This document shows positions 2,828 to 57,236 of a DNA stretch of 64,000 bases, piece by piece (the stretch's first letter is position 1; each line of letters begins with the position of its first letter). The notes beneath the pieces were generated by a model that worked only from the letters and a program-made list of their open reading frames with translations, had not been told where the DNA came from and ran no database searches. A program made the translations under genes and the position numbers. This DNA comes from a virus, in IMG/VR virus record IMGVR_UViG_3300042891_001180. One strand, 5' to 3'.

Positions 2828-3376
2828 ATGGCTGAAGAAAAGAAACCTCTAAGTAGGAGTGAGCGTGAAGCTCAGATCAAAGACAAAGCCGGGTGGCTTA
2901 TTACCGTACTTGCTGCACTTCTGGCCATTAATACCTATATTGCTTCTGGCAATAGTTCTAAAGTATTAAACAATACTATTAAAGCAAACGATACCTGGGC
3001 TTTCTATCAGGCTAAGTCTATTAAGCAGACCCTGGCTGAAATGGCAAGAGACGATGCAGTTGAGAGAAAACAATTTGATAAAGCAGACAAATTAACTGCT
3101 AAGATTAATCGTTACGAATCTGAACCAGCTACTGGTGAAGGTAAGAAGGAATTAATGGCTAAAGCACGAGCATTAGAAGCCGAGCGCGATCAAGTTCGTA
3201 AATCTGGTCCCTGGATGACATTTGCTGGTTCAGGTTTTCAGATTTCTATCGTTCTATTATCAGCTAGTATATTAGCTGTTGCTCCTGCACTTTACGTTGC
3301 AAGTATTGTAGTTGGTGCATTGTCAGCGTTACTAATGAGTCAAGGAATATGGCTCTGGATACCAATAGTGCTGTAA
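2828..3376 (+). CDS. Membrane protein, DUF4337-like
   Basis: AAGGAG RBS; N-terminal TM, DTWAFYQAKSIK motif, two C-terminal TMs (FQISIVLLSASIL). Confidence 0.7.
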   Translation: MAEEKKPLSRSEREAQIKDKAGWLITVLAALLAINTYIASGNSSKVLNNTIKANDTWAFYQAKSIKQTLAEMARDDAVERKQFDKADKLTAKINRYESEPATGEGKKELMAKARALEAERDQVRKSGPWMTFAGSGFQISIVLLSASILAVAPALYVASIVVGALSALLMSQGIWLWIPIVL

Positions 3377-4140
3377 TGAGCTCAAAAAAGTATCGGAGCA
3401 TCTTTATCAGTGATGTTCATCTAGGTACTAATGATTGTAAAGCCAATAAACTAAATAATTTTTTAAAATATAATACCTGTGATACTTTATACCTGGTAGG
3501 TGATATAATTGACGCCTGGCGCATACAACAAAACAAATGGCGTTGGAAGCAGTCTCATACTAATGTGGTGAGACGGGTTCTAGGTCATGCCAAACGTGGG
3601 ACCAGGGTAATATATATTGCTGGTAATCATGATGAATTTTTACGACCAATGATACCTTACGGGTTCAGTTTTGGCTTGATAGAAATTCATAATCAATTCG
3701 AACATATTGGTGCAGATGGTAAACATTATCTTGTTACACATGGTGACATGTTTGATGGTATTACCAGACTTGCACCCTGGTTAGCATTTTTAGGAGATCG
3801 TGCATATGATGTGGTTTTATCGCTCAATAACAAATTCAATTGGATACGTCATCGCTTTGGCTTTGGGTATTTTAGTCTTAGTCAATATCTCAAAACAAAA
3901 GTAAAAAAAGCGGTTGACTTTATATTTCACTTTGAAAAAAACTTAGCTGGTTATTGTAAAAAGCGCGGCTACGATGGAGTAATATGTGGTCATATACATC
4001 ATGCTGAAATAAAAGAGATAGACGGTGTAGTATACATGAACGATGGTGACTGGGTAGAGTCTTGTACTGCCTTAGTTGAACACTGGGATGGGCGCTGGGA
4101 AATTATTACCTGGACTAAGGAAACAGATGAAACTATCTGA
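3376..4140 (+). CDS. Calcineurin-like metallophosphoesterase, UDP-2,3-diacylglucosamine hydrolase (LpxH)-like family
   Basis: SDVHLG, LVGDIID, GNHD, HGD, CGHIH, NDGDWVESCT motifs. Confidence 0.85.
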   Translation: MSSKKYRSIFISDVHLGTNDCKANKLNNFLKYNTCDTLYLVGDIIDAWRIQQNKWRWKQSHTNVVRRVLGHAKRGTRVIYIAGNHDEFLRPMIPYGFSFGLIEIHNQFEHIGADGKHYLVTHGDMFDGITRLAPWLAFLGDRAYDVVLSLNNKFNWIRHRFGFGYFSLSQYLKTKVKKAVDFIFHFEKNLAGYCKKRGYDGVICGHIHHAEIKEIDGVVYMNDGDWVESCTALVEHWDGRWEIITWTKETDETI

Positions 4141-46075: not shown

Positions 46076-47784
46076 TTTGCAATCCTGCTAAAGTTCTGAT
46101 GCTTCTCAAATTTAATTACTGATCTAAACTTATCAAATAAAGCGTCTTTATGACTGATAATAAAGATATTATTATCTTCGCCTATAGTATTTAGGATAGT
46201 CATAACAAAGTCTGTTCCATTGATATCTAACGAGCCATCGAACACTTCATCCAACATCAATAGATTGGTAGAGGCAGAGTTCTTCATTCTAGCAATTGTA
46301 CGCCAGGTAAACAATAAAGCCAAATCAATCTTAGCCTTCTCACCTTCAGAGAACGATGCATAACTAAACTCATCTCTATGTCTAGACTTTATCTTCTCGT
46401 TAAATGCCTCATCTATCTCAAACGAGATAAAGAAGTCCATCGCCTGGAGATACTTATTGACTAGTTTATTAATGACTGGGAGGTACTGTTTAATAATCTT
46501 TGTCTTGATCCCTGTATCCTTAAGGAGTACAGAGGCAATCTCAAGATAGTGCCTCTCTTCAACCAATGCGCTCTTTGCTTCCGAATGAACGACCACTTCC
46601 TTAGCAATTGCTTTGAGTTTGGATTGCTCTTCAGCAAGCTTAGATACGTCTGCCCCTGCTGTCGGGATGTCTTGATTAAGCTTCTGGATATAGTTTTGAC
46701 TGGCAATGATTCTGGTATTGAGGCTAATAATGTTGCTCTTATGTTGAGCGATTTTCTCTTCGACCAGAGTAATCTCATCAAGTCGTGTCTCAATAGCGTC
46801 AAGTTGTTCGGTAAGGGTTTGAACAGCGGTTTCAATTTCACCAATTTTATGAGTGTGAGCCGCCTTTGCATTCTCTTTGACTTCAGCCTCAAGAGCTTGG
46901 TTACATGTCGGACATACATCATGTTCGTCATAAAACGATACATGTTTCTCCTGTGTCTTAATTCGCTCGGATAGTTTTCTAAGCAGCGCATCCAGTTCCG
47001 TACGTTTAGTACGCTTCTCGGTGTTGTCCACAATACTGGATTGAAGTAGACTTGCCCCGTTGTTTTCCTCTTCGACACTACGTTGAAGTTGTGCAATCTC
47101 TGCATTCGATTCAGATATTCGCTTTTGTACATCTTCTACCTTCTTCTGCTTATCTTCTTCCAGCGTCTTGATATAGTCTTGTTGAATCTTTACCTTAGAC
47201 TTACCCAGGTCAATCTTATTTTCGAGATCAGTTATCTTAACTTTAATATCGCTTGCTTTATCCTTCAGTACTGTATTCATAACAGTAAAGATCTTAATAT
47301 CTAATAGATCCTCAATCACCTCTCGCCTATGCGCGGCAGGTAATTGCATGAATGGAGTGAAGGAGGCAGAGCCCAGAATAACAATCTGAGTAAACGACTT
47401 ATAGTTTAGCTTCAGTACCTGATCTTCTAAGTACTTCTGATAGTCTCTTGCAGCGGCATCCTGATTCAATAACTCACCATTAAGGTATATCTCGAATACA
47501 GTCGGCTTACCGCCACGGCATATCTTATACTCTTTACTACCAATAGTAAACTCTACCTCTACCAACATATTCTTACCGTTGATAGAGTTAACCAACTGAG
47601 GCTTATTAATATTACGGAATGGCTTGTTGAATAGGGCAAAGCATAAGGCGTCTAGAATAGTAGACTTACCTGCACCATTTTCACCTATAATTAATGTAGT
47701 AGGTGACTTATCAAATTTAACTTCTGTAAATTGTGCGCCAGTTGATAAAAAGTTTTGCCATCTTATAACTTTAAATTTAATCAT
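46072..47784 (-). CDS. gp46: Recombination endonuclease subunit, Rad50/SbcC-like ATPase
   Basis: GENGAGKST, CPTC zinc hook, SFSEGEK, LDEVFD, ISH. Confidence 0.96.
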   Translation of the reverse strand: MIKFKVIRWQNFLSTGAQFTEVKFDKSPTTLIIGENGAGKSTILDALCFALFNKPFRNINKPQLVNSINGKNMLVEVEFTIGSKEYKICRGGKPTVFEIYLNGELLNQDAAARDYQKYLEDQVLKLNYKSFTQIVILGSASFTPFMQLPAAHRREVIEDLLDIKIFTVMNTVLKDKASDIKVKITDLENKIDLGKSKVKIQQDYIKTLEEDKQKKVEDVQKRISESNAEIAQLQRSVEEENNGASLLQSSIVDNTEKRTKRTELDALLRKLSERIKTQEKHVSFYDEHDVCPTCNQALEAEVKENAKAAHTHKIGEIETAVQTLTEQLDAIETRLDEITLVEEKIAQHKSNIISLNTRIIASQNYIQKLNQDIPTAGADVSKLAEEQSKLKAIAKEVVVHSEAKSALVEERHYLEIASVLLKDTGIKTKIIKQYLPVINKLVNKYLQAMDFFISFEIDEAFNEKIKSRHRDEFSYASFSEGEKAKIDLALLFTWRTIARMKNSASTNLLMLDEVFDGSLDINGTDFVMTILNTIGEDNNIFIISHKDALFDKFRSVIKFEKHQNFSRIAK

Positions 47785-48842
47785 ACTTCTTCATAGTTTT
47801 GCGCTTCAACATATAACGTCTTCATTAAGGTCTTGATGCGTGTCTTATCAGCCTCAGTATCTAAGCTATCAACATATTGTGATAGTAAGGTAACAGTATC
47901 TTCTAGATCTACTTCTTGATCACCCATTGCATCTGCTTCAAACTCAGATAGATCTTCAATAATTTTTAACTCTAAGGGGTTAACCTTATACAATCTCTCA
48001 ATAAACTGATCGTACTTATAGTAATCTTTTTTATTAACAACTATTAACTTAATGTGCTGGTTGGCATACTGACTTACATCAACAGTAGAAGGATCTACTT
48101 TCTCGTCGTCGTAGTAGACTTTAGAAAAGATCGAAAACGGGTTCTGAATAAAATCCAACGATCTCTCACTGGTGTCGAATATATGAAAGCCACGAGGGTC
48201 TTCGAAATCCGCCCAGGTAAGCTCATAAGGATTTCCAAGATAGTTAATGTTCCCATTACTACTACGGTGGTGAAAGTGGCCAGAACAAACCAGATCGAAC
48301 TTCTCAAATATCTTAGGATCAAATCCTTCATCGTTCTCGTGACCTTTATACATCTGAAAGCCAGCAATCTCAAAGTGCCCGAACAGTACCTGGGCATCGG
48401 TAGTCTTGATAGCTTCCATGCTTTGATTATAATTATCTGTACATATCCATGGCATCATGAATATCTTAGACCCATCATCGAATACTATCTCTGAAGGGGT
48501 ATCAATAACATTGAACTCATAGTCTTTAAGCAATAGACGAGGGGAGTTAACGTCATTGGTATTCTTAAAGAAGGTATCGTGATTACCTACAATCATATGT
48601 AGTTCGATATCCCTTTTTTTAATTTCGTCAAAAAAGTAACTACGACAAGAAGACAAGGTATTAAAATTGATATACTTACGGCGATCGAAACAATCACCAA
48701 GGTGTACAATATGTCGTATACCCCTTTTATCAATCTCAGGGAAGAAGACTTCCTCATAAAATTTCCTAAAGAAATTATCAAAGGGGATACTATCCGAGCG
48801 GGCACCGAAATGGGTATCGGTTACAAGCGCTATTTTAGTCAT
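47781..48842 (-). CDS. gp47: Recombination endonuclease subunit, Mre11/SbcD-like
   Basis: TDTHFG, GDCFDRRK, GNHD, GHFE, SGHFH. Confidence 0.95.
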   Translation of the reverse strand: MTKIALVTDTHFGARSDSIPFDNFFRKFYEEVFFPEIDKRGIRHIVHLGDCFDRRKYINFNTLSSCRSYFFDEIKKRDIELHMIVGNHDTFFKNTNDVNSPRLLLKDYEFNVIDTPSEIVFDDGSKIFMMPWICTDNYNQSMEAIKTTDAQVLFGHFEIAGFQMYKGHENDEGFDPKIFEKFDLVCSGHFHHRSSNGNINYLGNPYELTWADFEDPRGFHIFDTSERSLDFIQNPFSIFSKVYYDDEKVDPSTVDVSQYANQHIKLIVVNKKDYYKYDQFIERLYKVNPLELKIIEDLSEFEADAMGDQEVDLEDTVTLLSQYVDSLDTEADKTRIKTLMKTLYVEAQNYEEV

Positions 48843-49311
48843 TAAACTCGTTATCTTCCTTGTGTCCAACACGCATGGCCATATTGCTATCAGTCTCACG
48901 TACCTCTACCTTATAGCACCAGATACGATTTTGCTCTCCATAGCTTGGTAAAAAGATAGTATTTATATATTCATACAAAAAGTCTGCCAGACCTTCACAC
49001 CCAGTCTTTTCTACTTCTGTAATCTTAGCAATACCCTGCTTACCAAGTTCAAGTAGATATTCACGCTTAGGGTCGTCTTGTGCTACTAGCAAAGTATGAT
49101 CAAACCATTCTTCTAGTTTATCTTTTAATGGGCGCAGACCACCAAAGTCCATTACCCAATTGCGTGCATCCAATGTATCAGATTCGAACTCAAAGTGAAA
49201 TGATAAAGCATAACCATGGACTAAGTTACAGTGACTATCAGCTCTCCACTGACGGTACGCAACAGGTCCAATCTGCTTATACGTTTTAGTTGAAATATAT
49301 TTTTTTGCCAT
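48835..49311 (-). CDS. queD: 6-carboxytetrahydropterin synthase
   Basis: HCNLVHGY, WVMDFGG, FDHT, VRET..N.A. Confidence 0.88.
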   Translation of the reverse strand: MAKKYISTKTYKQIGPVAYRQWRADSHCNLVHGYALSFHFEFESDTLDARNWVMDFGGLRPLKDKLEEWFDHTLLVAQDDPKREYLLELGKQGIAKITEVEKTGCEGLADFLYEYINTIFLPSYGEQNRIWCYKVEVRETDSNMAMRVGHKEDNEFND

Positions 49312-49314
49312 TTT

Positions 49315-49378
49315 TTTCCTATGTTAATTAGCATAGGCAGCAGAATTTATAGAGCGGGATGACGCCGGAGACCGCTTA
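49315..49378 (-). promoter_or_regulatory. Candidate preQ1-I-like riboswitch in the queD leader
   Basis: AGCGG-TCTCCGGCGTCATC-CCGCT-CTATAAATTCTGCTGCC, then CCTATG-N8-CATAGG hairpin over the RBS. Confidence 0.5.
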
Positions 49379-49381
49379 TTT

Positions 49382-50122
49382 TTACTCAAGTAGATTATCT
49401 TTTATTTCTTTAAGCATACGCTTCTTTATCTTACTCTGATTAAAGATTAAATATATCTCTTCAAAATATGTCTTAATAGGAAATTTTTTTGTTTCTCTTA
49501 CTGACACACAAGTTTCATACATATTTCTTAATGCAAGGGTGTAGTAAAATTTTTTAAATACTATTTTTTTATCTGTAAAAAACTCTATGTAATATAAGAT
49601 ATCATTTAACTTAATGTTTACTGTTCCTGGCTCTTTAATATACAGAGCAACATCTAATAGTCTTACCCATTGACCGATGTCAAAGGATCCTTCAATAATA
49701 CCTGTTTTTTTCGTAAAGTCATTATTTGTATAATTGGCATTCTTTTGTTTTATAAGTAAAGATGGTTCCTCTGTAAAAAGAAAATATTTACATAAATTAA
49801 AAGACATAAGTCCTGTATTAGCATCCCTTGCAACGATACATTTATCTGAAAACTCTTTATCATGATCAGGCGTATATATGTTATGACCGTCCCATTTAAT
49901 TTTTACTTCAGCTGGTGATGTAATTGTAAATGTATTATTTAAACTATTAAGTACAGCAGGACATTTTAGAAAATTATTTTTATCATTATCAGGGTGTACA
50001 AGTTTATGCCCCAATTGCCTTAACTCCTTAATTGCAGGTTCAGGTTCTTTGTGGGTCAAGTTAAATTTTGATTGTACAAAGCCTGGCGCCCAATATACAA
50101 TAATTTCTTCTTTATCTCTCAT
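49382..50122 (-). CDS. Hypothetical AT-rich protein interrupting the deazaguanine cluster
   Basis: VYWAP, KCPAV...NTFTI.SP, GSFDIGQWVR. Confidence 0.65.
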   Translation of the reverse strand: MRDKEEIIVYWAPGFVQSKFNLTHKEPEPAIKELRQLGHKLVHPDNDKNNFLKCPAVLNSLNNTFTITSPAEVKIKWDGHNIYTPDHDKEFSDKCIVARDANTGLMSFNLCKYFLFTEEPSLLIKQKNANYTNNDFTKKTGIIEGSFDIGQWVRLLDVALYIKEPGTVNIKLNDILYYIEFFTDKKIVFKKFYYTLALRNMYETCVSVRETKKFPIKTYFEEIYLIFNQSKIKKRMLKEIKDNLLE

Positions 50123-50649
50123 ACGTATTTTTTATCATGTTCTTTACCAATACCATAACTACCATCGTACATCTTTAATGCCTCAGCATCAAAGGACAAA
50201 TACTGCCCTACCCTCGTACCTTGCTTAATGCGCGCGACACCAGTCGTAACATGAAGTACCCCGGCCATGACACCGTGATAGCCAGAATCATAAAGACCTG
50301 AAGTAATAAAACAACCATTGCGGTTAAGAGTGCTACGAGTAATGACCCAACCAGCTTCCCCCTCGCCCACATGGATGACGTTTTCCATAACGATCTCATA
50401 ACTCCCCGGGTATAGCGTAAAATAACCTTCTCCGTCTGGATTGAGTTCCGTAGAACCTCTATGCTTTTTGTGATCATTGCTTACCTCAAACACTTCGTTA
50501 TTAATTTGAAATACCTTACCTAAACGTAGATCTACAGCATTAGGTTGAATATCTCCATCAACAACATTGGTAAGCTTAGTCCTACTACTTTCCCCCATCA
50601 CGTGCTTCATACTAAAGGGTTCTGAATATAATTTATATGTAACTGTCAT
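50119..50649 (-). CDS. dCTP deaminase/dUTPase family protein
   Basis: QPNAVDLRL, RSTLNRNG, YDSGYHG, RVGQ. Confidence 0.8.
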   Translation of the reverse strand: MTVTYKLYSEPFSMKHVMGESSRTKLTNVVDGDIQPNAVDLRLGKVFQINNEVFEVSNDHKKHRGSTELNPDGEGYFTLYPGSYEIVMENVIHVGEGEAGWVITRSTLNRNGCFITSGLYDSGYHGVMAGVLHVTTGVARIKQGTRVGQYLSFDAEALKMYDGSYGIGKEHDKKYV

Positions 50650-52231: not shown

Positions 52232-53148
52232 TGTCTTGCTGTCTTTTCACAGAAGTTATAAGCATCAATAATAGGTGCTTGGTTTAAGAGATAGTAATTA
52301 GATGCGCGAGTAGGATTGATATCAATACCACCTCTACGAGTATACAAGCATGTGACCAATAACTCTTCAGGGTCTAACAAGTCATATAAGCGCTTGTAAA
52401 TGCATTCGGCAATCTCTTCATGGAAATGATTCTCTTTGCGCATTGATACAATGTACTGCAGTAATGATTCAGGGGTAACAGCCTTCTCGCCTTTAATATG
52501 AATATAAACATCACCCCAGTCTGGCTGGTTAGTTACTCGGCAATTTGAACGCAACGAATGTGAACGCCATCTTTCATAACGACCAATAGAAGGGACAACT
52601 TCAAGAATATCAGATGATTCATTATATTGATCAAATGACATCTTAGCAACATTACAGTATTCTTCAAGCGCCATAAAGTCACCTTTCAAAGGCTTGAGAG
52701 TATCTACATCACCAACTGCAATATAAACACCAACGTCTCCGCCTACAGCCTTGGAGAGATCTTTTTCAATTTGTTCTTCAATATAATGAAGATCTTCTTT
52801 ACCTTCAATTAAGCGAGCCATATTATAAGAGTTCAAATATAACTTAACCGATTTAGACTCAACAATATTAGGAGTACTGGATGAGTAAGTAAACTTTAAC
52901 CAACCGGAGATAGGAAAGCCATTCTTCTGTAAGGTAGAGAACTCATAAGCATTCCAGGCATCCATACCTACAAAAGGTAATTCTTCTTCTTGAATATCGT
53001 ATGCTGTACGATTCAAATAACGAGGTACAGAAACCAAGAGACTTGGATCAACTTCATCTGGCGTTACATAGGGGTTAACAGCTGACCCATCACCTGCCTT
53101 ACCTAAATGGACCCCAATCAGCTTATTCAGTTCGTCTTGATTACTCAT
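52228..53148 (-). CDS. queF: NADPH-dependent preQ0 reductase, bimodular type
   Basis: DAWNAYE, ESKSVKLYLNS QueF motif, catalytic C in SNCRVTNQPD, FHE, YTRRGGIDINP. Confidence 0.93.
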   Translation of the reverse strand: MSNQDELNKLIGVHLGKAGDGSAVNPYVTPDEVDPSLLVSVPRYLNRTAYDIQEEELPFVGMDAWNAYEFSTLQKNGFPISGWLKFTYSSSTPNIVESKSVKLYLNSYNMARLIEGKEDLHYIEEQIEKDLSKAVGGDVGVYIAVGDVDTLKPLKGDFMALEEYCNVAKMSFDQYNESSDILEVVPSIGRYERWRSHSLRSNCRVTNQPDWGDVYIHIKGEKAVTPESLLQYIVSMRKENHFHEEIAECIYKRLYDLLDPEELLVTCLYTRRGGIDINPTRASNYYLLNQAPIIDAYNFCEKTARQ

Positions 53149-53681
53149 TATCTTCCTTCTAAATGATCTAAAATTGTATTAACTCTATTACGCACAGAGC
53201 CTTTAACTCTAAGCATACTTAAATTTTCTTTTTCAATAACATATTCAAATAATTCTGCAATCTCATCTCTAAATTGCTTATTGATACTGCGTACACCATC
53301 ATCCACAATCTCAAACTCAGGCTCAATATAGAAGACATAATCATACGAATGCCATACTTTATTAAATACTTCTCTAACATATTTCAAAGTATTTGCACTA
53401 ATTTGATTTTTATTATACAAGTACGCACTATAAACTAAACCGTCTAGTGCAGTACGATCTGTTAACATATTACCGTACATGAACACATTAACAATATGCT
53501 CATTCATAATAAGACGTTGAGTTATATCGGTACCTTCTTCATTAATAGGTAAGCCATAACTCTTTACGCGACGAGTTACCTCATCACATACAACATAGTC
53601 TTTAAATAGTTTTTCCGAGCGCAACGCATTCAATAAAGTAGTCTTACCTACCGACTGCGCACCCGTTATACCAATCTTCAT
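53148..53681 (-). CDS. P-loop nucleotide kinase (NadR/AAA_28-like)
   Basis: ITGAQSVGKTT, DRTALD..VY, DDGVR. Confidence 0.8.
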   Translation of the reverse strand: MKIGITGAQSVGKTTLLNALRSEKLFKDYVVCDEVTRRVKSYGLPINEEGTDITQRLIMNEHIVNVFMYGNMLTDRTALDGLVYSAYLYNKNQISANTLKYVREVFNKVWHSYDYVFYIEPEFEIVDDGVRSINKQFRDEIAELFEYVIEKENLSMLRVKGSVRNRVNTILDHLEGR

Positions 53682-54220
53682 AATCCCTTTTCCCTTAAGA
53701 AGAAATTCCATGCCGATAACGAAGTCATCTTAAGTGAAGCATATAGATCTTCTCTAGTATAATTTCTATTACGTACATAGACAGATTTCAGTACATCACC
53801 ACCATCTAGTTCAGCTGTGCATTTATGTACAACACTGCCTATTATATTATACTTGTCGTTATCTTGCCATACTTTTTCTTGCGGATCTTTTCCTTTTAAC
53901 TCAGGGAAGAGAGTAATTGCTCCAGGATGGCCGTTATATACTTCGTATTTTTCACATATATCAGCTGGTAGAATGCGAAGGTAACCATGAAGACTAATAA
54001 GGGTCTGAGGAACATTATATACCACCTGATTTCTAAAGTAGTTCATTATCATATCATGCTTAGCAGACATAATAGTAACACCCAGCTCACGAATGCCTGG
54101 GTGAAATTTAATTTTATCTTCGAAGTTATTAGTTACCAATAAGTCTGGCTTACGCTTGATAGACTTAGATAACTCTACAATCTCAGAGCCTGTCTGACTA
54201 AAGAATGCAACCCACAACAT
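53678..54220 (-). CDS. PurN-fold formyltransferase, probably DpdN-like preQ1 formyltransferase
   Basis: FSQTGSE, LHGYLRIL, NGHPG, G.VVH...ELDGG; embedded among Que genes. Confidence 0.78.
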   Translation of the reverse strand: MLWVAFFSQTGSEIVELSKSIKRKPDLLVTNNFEDKIKFHPGIRELGVTIMSAKHDMIMNYFRNQVVYNVPQTLISLHGYLRILPADICEKYEVYNGHPGAITLFPELKGKDPQEKVWQDNDKYNIIGSVVHKCTAELDGGDVLKSVYVRNRNYTREDLYASLKMTSLSAWNFFLREKGL

Positions 54221-55020
54221 TACCTGTATCCGTGAACAAAAGAACGGAAGTACAAAATGTTATGCTTGATGGTATGCATAGTGGCTACCGAGGGCTCAGG
54301 AGTGTTAAGTAGCTCAATGAGCTTGATGGATTTCTTAGCATCCAGACCACCAGGCTCGTAACCAAGGCCCAGCAAAGCGTGAACAATAGGGTTGGAAGTA
54401 TCCAATGACTCCAACCATTCGAAACCTTGACGATAGAACATAAATTCAATCGGTAACGCGCACCCAAGGAGGTGATGCGGCTTTTTAGTATTGATAACAT
54501 CATCTTGTAATAATCTAGTTAAAGTTTGTACCCTACCTAATGCATAACCCACCCACTTGTTAGGATGAGGACAAACCTCGAGGTAGTACGAGTAGTCAAA
54601 GGAAATTGCAATCTTATCTACACCAATTACATTATCAAGATAATCATAGCATTGAACTATGTCTTCATAACTCTTACCCTGAACAACACCAATTTTCTTA
54701 CCAGGTATATCGGAATACTTTTCTTTCCAATCTAAAGCATTATCCATTGTACCGAGTGTATCTTCGAGTACATCAGGAATAATATATTCAGTAGGTTGTA
54801 GTTCTTTAATCCAATGGGCATACCGATCAGAATCAAATGCCGTACCTAATTCAAAGATAGAATTATCTAGCAAGACGGTTCGACCCTGAGCTAGAGAATC
54901 TTTAAAGAATTGGTAATAGGTTGGTTCGGTTTCGAACAAGTGGACAAGAGCGTAATCGTAATCGTTATAACTACGAGACCGATCAAGAAGGCAAAGCGGG
55001 GATTCATGACTAATTTTCAT
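54220..55020 (-). CDS. TGT/DpdA-like TIM-barrel protein (DpdA3-like candidate)
   Basis: LLDNSIFELG, IPDV, GVVQG, HHLLG, SLDTS in the order of TGT-family motifs; cluster context. Confidence 0.65.
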   Translation of the reverse strand: MKISHESPLCLLDRSRSYNDYDYALVHLFETEPTYYQFFKDSLAQGRTVLLDNSIFELGTAFDSDRYAHWIKELQPTEYIIPDVLEDTLGTMDNALDWKEKYSDIPGKKIGVVQGKSYEDIVQCYDYLDNVIGVDKIAISFDYSYYLEVCPHPNKWVGYALGRVQTLTRLLQDDVINTKKPHHLLGCALPIEFMFYRQGFEWLESLDTSNPIVHALLGLGYEPGGLDAKKSIKLIELLNTPEPSVATMHTIKHNILYFRSFVHGYR

Positions 55021-57176: not shown

Positions 57177-57236
57177 CTCCTAGTTGTACGTGGAAGGGCA
57201 CGATCCATTATATAGGCTAGTCATAATCTGGATCAA
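57177..57236 (-). promoter_or_regulatory. Promoter and mini-hairpin leader of the Que operon
   Basis: TTGATC-N18-TATAAT, then CGTG-CCCTTC-CACG-TACAACT-AGGAG. Confidence 0.5.

Follow-up and report, generated by a model that had tools for sequence, protein, structure and literature searches.

The queD leader and its gene neighbourhood

The window analysed here is a stretch of viral DNA of 64,000 nucleotides (IMG/VR record IMGVR_UViG_3300042891_001180), in which queD belongs to an array of T4-like replication and nucleotide metabolism genes, all of them on the minus strand. The array begins with UvsW, the late sigma factor gp55 (phrog_234, E 2e-58), a QueE-like radical-SAM protein and FolE. These are followed by a 145-aa ORF, a 266-aa DpdA-like protein, a formyltransferase, a P-loop kinase and QueF, then by a small ORF, QueC, an amidotransferase, a dCTP-deaminase-fold protein and a 246-aa ORF, and the array ends with the queD leader, QueD, and the Mre11/Rad50-like gp47 and gp46. 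The leader is the 70-nt gap at 49312-49381 (minus strand; the sequence quoted is the reverse complement). As its first helix, P1, begins so soon after the stop codon of the 246-aa ORF, the leader is part of the read-through mRNA of the gene array. All coordinates are given in Table 1.

Table 1. Features of the queD leader and of the flanking genes in the window.
Feature	Sequence	Positions	Strand	Remarks or basis
Upstream 246-aa ORF		49382-50122	minus	PHROG 17480, function unassigned; no Pfam match
Stop codon of the 246-aa ORF	TAA	49382..49384	minus	P1 starts 5 nt 3' of TAA
P1 5' strand	AGCGG	49372..49376	minus	partner 49353-49357
L1	UCUCC	49367..49371	minus	first three bases UCU, ACU or CCU among relatives
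P2 5' strand	GGCG (P2b), U (conserved U.C mismatch), CA (P2a)	49360..49366	minus
L2	UC	49358..49359	minus	C adjoining P1 invariant; candidate ligand-pairing base
P1 3' strand	CCGCU	49353..49357	minus	covariation counts
L3	CUAUAAAUUC	49343..49352	minus	A-rich, 10 nt; reads TATAAAT in the window phage
P2 3' strand	UG (P2a), C (mismatch), UGCC (P2b)	49336..49342	minus	doubles as anti-SD/anti-start strand
Sequestor hairpin	CCUAUG, loop CUAAUUAA, CAUAGG	49318..49337	minus	covers AGG of the ribosome site
Shine-Dalgarno (SD)	AGGA	49317..49320	minus	sequence
queD (regulated gene)		48835..49311	minus	PTPS family, 158 aa; PF01242, E 7.7e-16

Some details of the neighbourhood differ between related contigs. 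The 246-aa ORF is an insertion relative to the sibling contigs and is shared only with L001 (75% identity); in L002-L011, the end of the dCTP-deaminase-fold gene directly adjoins the leader. Downstream, the longest ORF of the Mre11-like gp47 (47781-48899, starting with GTG) shares 65 nt with the 3' end of queD, and the true start of gp47 probably lies further downstream. The order DpdA, formyltransferase, kinase, QueF (53148-55020, minus strand) is found again in phage NC_055915.1, for whose DNA Hutinet et al. 2023 report 345,000 fdPreQ1 per million nucleotides. This common gene order supports formyl-preQ1 modification of the DNA of the window phage as well. No leader motif is present before the queD gene of NC_055915.1.

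The minus strand of 49336-49376 forms an H-type pseudoknot, with the sequestor hairpin CCUAUG/CAUAGG downstream. After the P2 3' strand, the leader reads UAUG CUAAUUAA CAUAGG, then AAAAAA AUG; the hairpin takes up the CC with which the P2 3' strand ends, and AUGGCA at the start of queD is an alternative partner for the UGCC of the same strand. The features that a sequence-only reading of this gap had pointed out are all found in the window: the 5-bp stem AGCGG/CCGCU with a U after the last G of its 5' strand, a C before the 3' strand and a CUAUAAA tail, a loop GGCG complementary to UGCC, and a hairpin CCUAUG/CAUAGG overlapping both the CC of UGCC and the AGGA ribosome site. Its further proposal, that the pseudoknot and the SD-hiding hairpin compete, is borne out, the two being mutually exclusive through their common strand.

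Comparison with relatives refines this picture. UCA and UGC, earlier taken as loop and tail, pair with each other, and P2 comprises seven or more positions including a conserved U.C mismatch. L1 is 3-9 nt long and starts with WCU; L2 is 2-3 nt long, with the variants UC, CC, AC, UUC and CUC, every one of which ends in C. Of 41 distinct copies from queD-seeded loci, 40 have an L3 of 10 nt and one has an L3 of 11 nt. The consensus of L3 is NWANANAYUC, with A as third, fifth and seventh base and UC at the end; its commonest forms are UUACAAAYUC and AUACAAAYUC. Taken alone, the window sequence folds in an unremarkable way (MFE -14.5 kcal/mol, z = -0.59 compared to shuffles), and it is the comparison of relatives, not the single sequence, that argues against chance.

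Conservation, covariation and distribution

A QueD protein search of IMG/VR yielded 429 relatives, and the best 80 of these 429 loci (82-98% identity) were kept. In these, the same element lies in the 130 nt upstream of queD, whichever gene is located farther upstream. Further copies were retrieved with a sequence pattern anchored on the stretch of constant length, 13 nt, that separates P1 from the P2b 3' strand, together with a P1 filter. The main alignment contains 133 distinct copies, from both the queD-seeded and the pattern-derived loci.

In these 133 copies, 91.0% of the cells in paired columns are paired, versus 74.5% in column shuffles, and none of 500 shuffles reaches the observed value; when the partners are slid by 1-3 columns, pairing falls to 33-52%. 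Double-change cells number 260 versus 71 in shuffles, and the covariation score is 0.42 versus 0.125. P1 is 99% paired, with two covarying pairs, its positions 2 and 3 varying as GC/CG/UA and CG/AU/UA and hardly ever being mismatched. In P2, pairing amounts to 85-88%, and six pairs covary. Up to six pair types occur per column of P2b (examples are GGCG:UGCC, GGCAU:AUGCC, GACAC:GUGUC, GACUU:AAGUC, AGGAC:GUCCU, AGUGU:ACACU and AUGC:GCAU). In P2a, the C:G pair is invariant, and the adjacent pair is A:U in 105 and G:C in the other 15 of the 120 distinct copies, none of which is discordant. The strand asymmetry of the paired columns (39 G.U versus 25 A.C) is weak and was given no weight.

Because the second retrieval relied on a pattern and a P1 filter, the pair count was redone on the queD-seeded loci only. 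In this set (40 distinct rows), 92.9% of cells are paired versus 74.6% in shuffles (0/500), and P1 is again 99% paired. The absence of covariation upstream of homologous queD genes had been set beforehand as an outcome that would count against a riboswitch; covariation is strong both in the 133 copies and in the queD-seeded set. As the second pattern forced some loop bases, invariance was judged on the queD-seeded alignment only. There, no fewer than eight unpaired positions never change, while the helices do: base 3 of L1, the C that ends L2, A3, A5, A7, U9 and C10 of L3, and the mismatched C. Compensating helices around invariant loop bases have the look of a ligand pocket or of a tertiary core.

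A covariance model built from the relatives (R1) has a single match in the window, at 49331-49379 on the minus strand (63.5 bits, E 6e-13). It matches 66 of the 80 queD-seeded IMG/VR loci, in each case in the leader ahead of queD or of a short ORF followed by queD, and has no match outside queD-operon leaders on either strand of the 525 kb that these 80 loci represent. R1 also matches 97 of the 100 pattern-derived loci, once each. Beyond the queD-seeded loci, the motif is found in about 110 or more further viral contigs. Among the pattern matches listed in viral contigs, 108 of 119 lie directly before a QueD homologue, and for the other true copies among the matches listed, a short ORF comes between the motif and queD. 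The structure combines covariation, invariant loop bases, a nearly exclusive link with queD and mutually exclusive pairings.

The element is also dispensable, since in two contigs (L007 and L012) the leader is cleanly missing despite the same gene neighbourhood and a QueD of 87-96% identity. A region at the operon head (57177-57212), earlier named as a second miniature preQ1-like leader, has no R1 match at E<=10 and is not a copy of the queD-leader motif. One further contig (L205, minus strand) carries tandem copies of the motif, at 3262-3312 and 3484-3532, which differ from each other in platform type (see below); the first copy precedes a short ORF and the second one precedes queD.

In the cellular genomes scanned, the motif is almost absent. 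Two pattern variants, AGCGG and AGAGG, to which about three quarters of the observed P1 types belong, were run against 185,579 prokaryote species, each represented by a single genome. The AGCGG variant has no match in these 185,579 genomes. The AGAGG variant has three, of which two are real, both located before a PTPS/QueD gene on short phage-like contigs of metagenome-assembled genomes (MAGs). These two contigs (CAYXKP010000258.1 and JBDNIA010000391.1), whose ORFs are mostly unannotatable, were binned into Nitrospira and Crocinitomicaceae MAGs and look like mis-binned phage contigs. Among cultured phages, a blastn search of INPHARED with the leaders gave chance matches only, and the motif is absent from the closest cultured phages checked.

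Catalogued RNAs, preQ1 riboswitches and expression platforms

When the whole window is searched with Rfam 15 at gathering thresholds, five tRNAs are the only matches, and nothing is found at the leader. At E<=10, the 201 nt around the leader and the type B and C leaders (see below) give chance matches only (e.g. U4, STnc480 and snoU83D). The preQ1-I model RF00522 (gathering threshold 39 bits) has no match at the motif at E<=10, in the window as well as in five related contigs, its matches in the latter being at chance level and away from the motif, and neither RF01054 (preQ1-II) nor RF02680 (preQ1-III) matches the window leader. The queD-leader pseudoknot matches no catalogued RNA family, and is therefore not a mislabelled known RNA. 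In the literature searched, most of it outside subscription journals, we came upon no account of an RNA in a phage queD leader, nor of a preQ1 riboswitch that is naturally of the ON type, and the word riboswitch is absent from the two main papers on phage 7-deazaguanines.

The element is nevertheless built like a preQ1-I aptamer, of which there are types I to III, with examples such as B. subtilis queC, T. tengcongensis, C. antarcticum and E. coli (2024 review, PMC11625349). Both are small H-type pseudoknots with a 5-bp P1, a P2 formed by the hairpin loop and the 3' tail, and an A-rich L3. In both, a pyrimidine follows the 5' strand of P1, and a conserved C immediately precedes its 3' strand. 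This C is preceded by U in the window, and UC at this place is given as the mark of type I (PMC11625349). A queuosine-pathway gene lies downstream in both cases, and translation is controlled through SD access.

The dimensions of the element are outside those of types I to III. Generally, L1 of preQ1-I aptamers is about 2 nt, P2 3-4 bp and L2 4-6 nt. Against these general values, L1 of the phage element is longer (3-9 nt, starting with WCU), P2 is longer (at least seven positions with a U.C mismatch) and L2 is shorter (2-3 nt); L3 is also longer than is usual for the class, at an essentially fixed 10 nt with C at its end. Moreover, the P2 3' strand of the phage element is an anti-SD and not the SD, its logic would be ON and not OFF, and the element is seen only on phage or phage-like contigs. 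A ligand-bound fold that hides the SD or forms a terminator, as expected of a preQ1-I OFF switch, is not what the leader offers. The description of the window leader as preQ1-I-like has therefore to be divided: a conserved preQ1-I-shaped pseudoknot tied to queD is indeed present, but membership of the preQ1-I family is not supported, since the Rfam search suggested along with it finds nothing at the motif, and the dimensions differ.

In the review already mentioned, the preQ1 riboswitches described are all OFF switches, preQ1-II and preQ1-III, limited to certain bacteria, included (PMC11625349). The likeness to these two classes is restricted to a pseudoknotted aptamer, a queuosine-pathway link and an action on translation; they are HLout pseudoknots of about twice the size, with extra helices. 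The proposed switching principle of the phage leader resembles that of the add adenine riboswitch of Vibrio vulnificus, a translational ON switch with a bacterial three-way-junction purine aptamer, in which the ligand-stabilised aptamer pulls a strand away from the helix sequestering the SD and start codon; the two folds are unrelated.

Downstream of the aptamer core, three expression platforms can be distinguished. In type A, to which the window belongs, the SD is covered by CCUAUG..CAUAGG(AG), whose CC provides the last two bases of the P2 3' strand. In type B, UG(C/U)CAUC pairs with GAUGGCA, which comprises the start and second codons, four of the bases coming from the P2 3' strand. In type C, ACUCC pairs with GGAGU, with three bases from P2. 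These platforms are unrelated to each other, and each of them uses the P2 3' strand in its sequestor helix. As the type A hairpin barely varies, its pairing is supported by the existence of three analogous designs and not by covariation.

The consequences of this arrangement were estimated by folding 141 leaders twice, with the P2 3' strand either free or masked, ignoring pseudoknot energies and coaxial stacking. Masking changes the MFE of the platform from -8.7 to -2.9 kcal/mol and lowers SD pairing from 0.67 to 0.26 over the 141 leaders. In type B, pairing of the start codon falls from 0.94 to 0.48, and in the window the SD pairing probability falls from 0.75 to 0.02, so that masking frees the SD. 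As the strand that closes the knot is also the strand that hides the ribosome-binding site in platforms A, B and C, formation of the knot should turn translation on. Estimated from nearest-neighbour energies in which the pseudoknot and stacking terms are ignored, the direction of the switch should be ON. The possibility of an ON switch, raised from the window sequence alone, is in keeping with the wiring of all three platforms.

No terminator-like site is present in 48800-50200, and instead of the GC-rich stem and U run of an intrinsic terminator, P1 is followed by CUAUAAAUUC. An OFF arrangement in which L1 (UCUCC) would pair with the SD (GGAGA) was considered and dropped, as L1 is unconserved beyond UCU and types B and C do not fit.

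Proposed switch, candidate ligands and alternative readings

The element is a conserved RNA pseudoknot, found almost only in phages, with a preQ1-I-like design and ON wiring. It has what is generally expected of a riboswitch, namely a covarying structured leader with invariant unpaired bases before a metabolic gene and, in silico, a platform mutually exclusive with the aptamer. The reading that we favour, and consider fairly probable, is that the leader is a cis-acting translational ON riboswitch with an H-type pseudoknot aptamer. The knot would compete with a helix formed further downstream by the P2 3' strand and the SD, the queD start codon or both. Most likely, a small guanine-like ligand would dock between P1 and P2 against the invariant C and stabilise the knot; the stabilised knot would capture the anti-SD strand, the ribosome site would open and QueD could be translated. 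Ligand binding itself, the identity of the ligand and the direction of control in vivo are what we infer here. ON control of a biosynthetic gene by the product of its own pathway is unusual, and this counts against an ON riboswitch.

To narrow the choice of ligands, the gene content of 27 long queD contigs was surveyed, 26 of them with the motif and three rated complete by CheckV. FolE is present in 25 of the 27 and a close QueE homologue in 25 of the 27; neither QueF nor a Pfam TGT is found in any of them. Full-length QueC and a homologue of the DpdA-like protein of the window occur only in the single contig without the motif. QueF-MazG-QueC-Gat beside the leader is found only in the lineage of the window (L001-L012, L119, L189), and the aptamer core is the same in this lineage and in the carriers with only FolE, QueD and QueE. 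As only the window lineage can make preQ1 and the core is the same in both groups, phage-made preQ1 is unlikely as the common signal. Regulation of a phage DNA-modification pathway, which had also been suggested for the switch, suits the window phage, which has a DpdA-like gene, QueC and QueF, but does not extend to most long carriers, which have only FolE, QueD and QueE. In the contigs behind L023-L166 (G001-G029), which include complete-rated jumbo phages of 230-355 kb, the pathway genes are mostly FolE, QueD and QueE, and most of the long queD contigs among them are without QueC, QueF and a recognisable DpdA/TGT.

The ligand candidates that remain are a host-derived 7-deazapurine, an early intermediate of the pathway (H2NTP, CPH4 or CDG) and a guanine compound, all of which offer a guanine-like face that the invariant C could read. 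If a ligand is bound, a 7-deazapurine (preQ1, preQ0 or CDG, host- or phage-made) would be our first choice, made tentatively. A pterin of the same pathway, either H2NTP, the substrate of QueD, or CPH4, comes second, as a possibility with clearly less weight. Guanine or a guanine nucleotide appears doubtful, and some other compound more so. Substrate feed-forward would be the most sensible logic for an ON switch placed on a committed enzyme. One bolder version would be a riboswitch class restricted to phages that senses H2NTP, CPH4 or CDG and activates QueD by feed-forward, diverting pterin from folate only when it is in excess; we hold this to be a speculative proposal with a small share of the probability. 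Such a class would give the preQ1-I fold both its first ON-type member and a new ligand specificity.

Were a ligand confirmed, the leader would represent a riboswitch class living only in phages, as far as the collections searched show, in which the smallest known aptamer architecture has been rewired from OFF to ON. It would then reveal how phages control the timing or the extent of the committed step in making 7-deazaguanines, and would provide synthetic biology with a compact natural ON switch of about 70 nt. In the window, 7-deazaguanine synthesis appears to feed a DpdA3-type pathway like that of Flavobacterium phage immuto_2-6A, in which G is described as fully replaced by formyl-preQ1. 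The leader also gives a handle on the role of the widespread FolE-QueD-QueE trio in freshwater phages without QueC, QueF and a recognisable DpdA.

Among the other readings, the one that survives best, while still unlikely, is that the pseudoknot is read by a protein or by the translation machinery, either as an operator for a phage translational repressor or QueD itself, much like the leader pseudoknot of T4 gene 32, or through coupling of queD translation to termination at the upstream ORF. A structure with invariant loop bases and a link to the ribosome site suits an operator as well as an aptamer, and in the window, as in many other loci, P1 follows closely on the upstream stop codon. However, the queD-linked element spans phages from T4-like ones to jumbo phages of 230-355 kb with differing gene content; as the carriers differ so widely in size and genes, a common trans-acting protein other than QueD is not evident. 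The size and topology of the element and its single invariant C by P1 also closely copy a small-molecule aptamer design.

Somewhat less probable still is a ligand-independent tuning of the mRNA, in which the SD hairpin would silence queD on early or middle read-through mRNA, transcripts started inside the leader would be translated, and the knot would set folding or stability. T4 offers precedents for such an arrangement. The ribosome-binding sites of gene e and soc are hidden in a hairpin on read-through mRNA with a possible internal promoter, and transcripts started inside the leader lack its 5' half and get translated. The leader of T4 gene 32 contains a pseudoknot serving translational control. 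The window, being T4-like, shares with them the hairpin over the ribosome-binding site, a possible internal promoter and a leader pseudoknot; the T4 elements have no tie to a metabolic enzyme and no preQ1-like pocket design, and are not common to unrelated phage groups with one and the same gene.

An internal start is favoured by the late sigma factor gp55 encoded nearby, by the TATAAAT of the window L3, and by a sigma-70-like TTTACA-N17-TATAAT of fixed spacing in 49 of the 86 type A leaders. In the latter (e.g. L018:2925-2997), the -35 box lies across the end of P1 and L3 and the -10 box in the sequestor loop; a transcript started there would be an aptamer-less mRNA with a free SD, which could coexist with a switch. 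As these 49 of 86 leaders are promoter-like, some of the conservation of sequence could reflect constraints on the DNA. Against this, the platforms of types B and C and of the window contain no TATAAT, and a promoter leaves unexplained the compensatory changes of P1 and P2 and the switch from A:U to G:C in P2a. TATAAAT as a gp55 late promoter, the alternative foreseen for the window, is unlikely as a conserved function: exact TATAAATA is found in only 2 of 141 leaders and is not enriched in the window (6 found versus 10.4 expected). The window itself lacks TTTACA-N17-TATAAT, its sequestor loop being CUAAUUAA.

It is very unlikely that the leader is an ordinary, divergent preQ1-I riboswitch that binds preQ1 and turns queD off as in bacteria. 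The topology, the 5-bp P1, the type I UC, the A-rich tail and the Q-pathway gene downstream are what such a riboswitch would have, but RF00522 does not match the motif even at E<=10, the known types have a shorter L1, P2 and L3 and a longer L2, the SD lies outside P2, whose 3' strand is the anti-SD, and none of the 26 long carriers, three of them rated complete, has QueF or a full-length QueC. Finally, a chance resemblance or a DNA-level element without RNA function (a promoter or a protein-binding inverted repeat), to which the unremarkable single-sequence fold could point, can practically be set aside, as two interleaved helices covary over 133 distinct copies at values that no shuffle reaches, and as orientation and distance to the start codon are fixed, with one copy per contig, always on the sense strand of queD.
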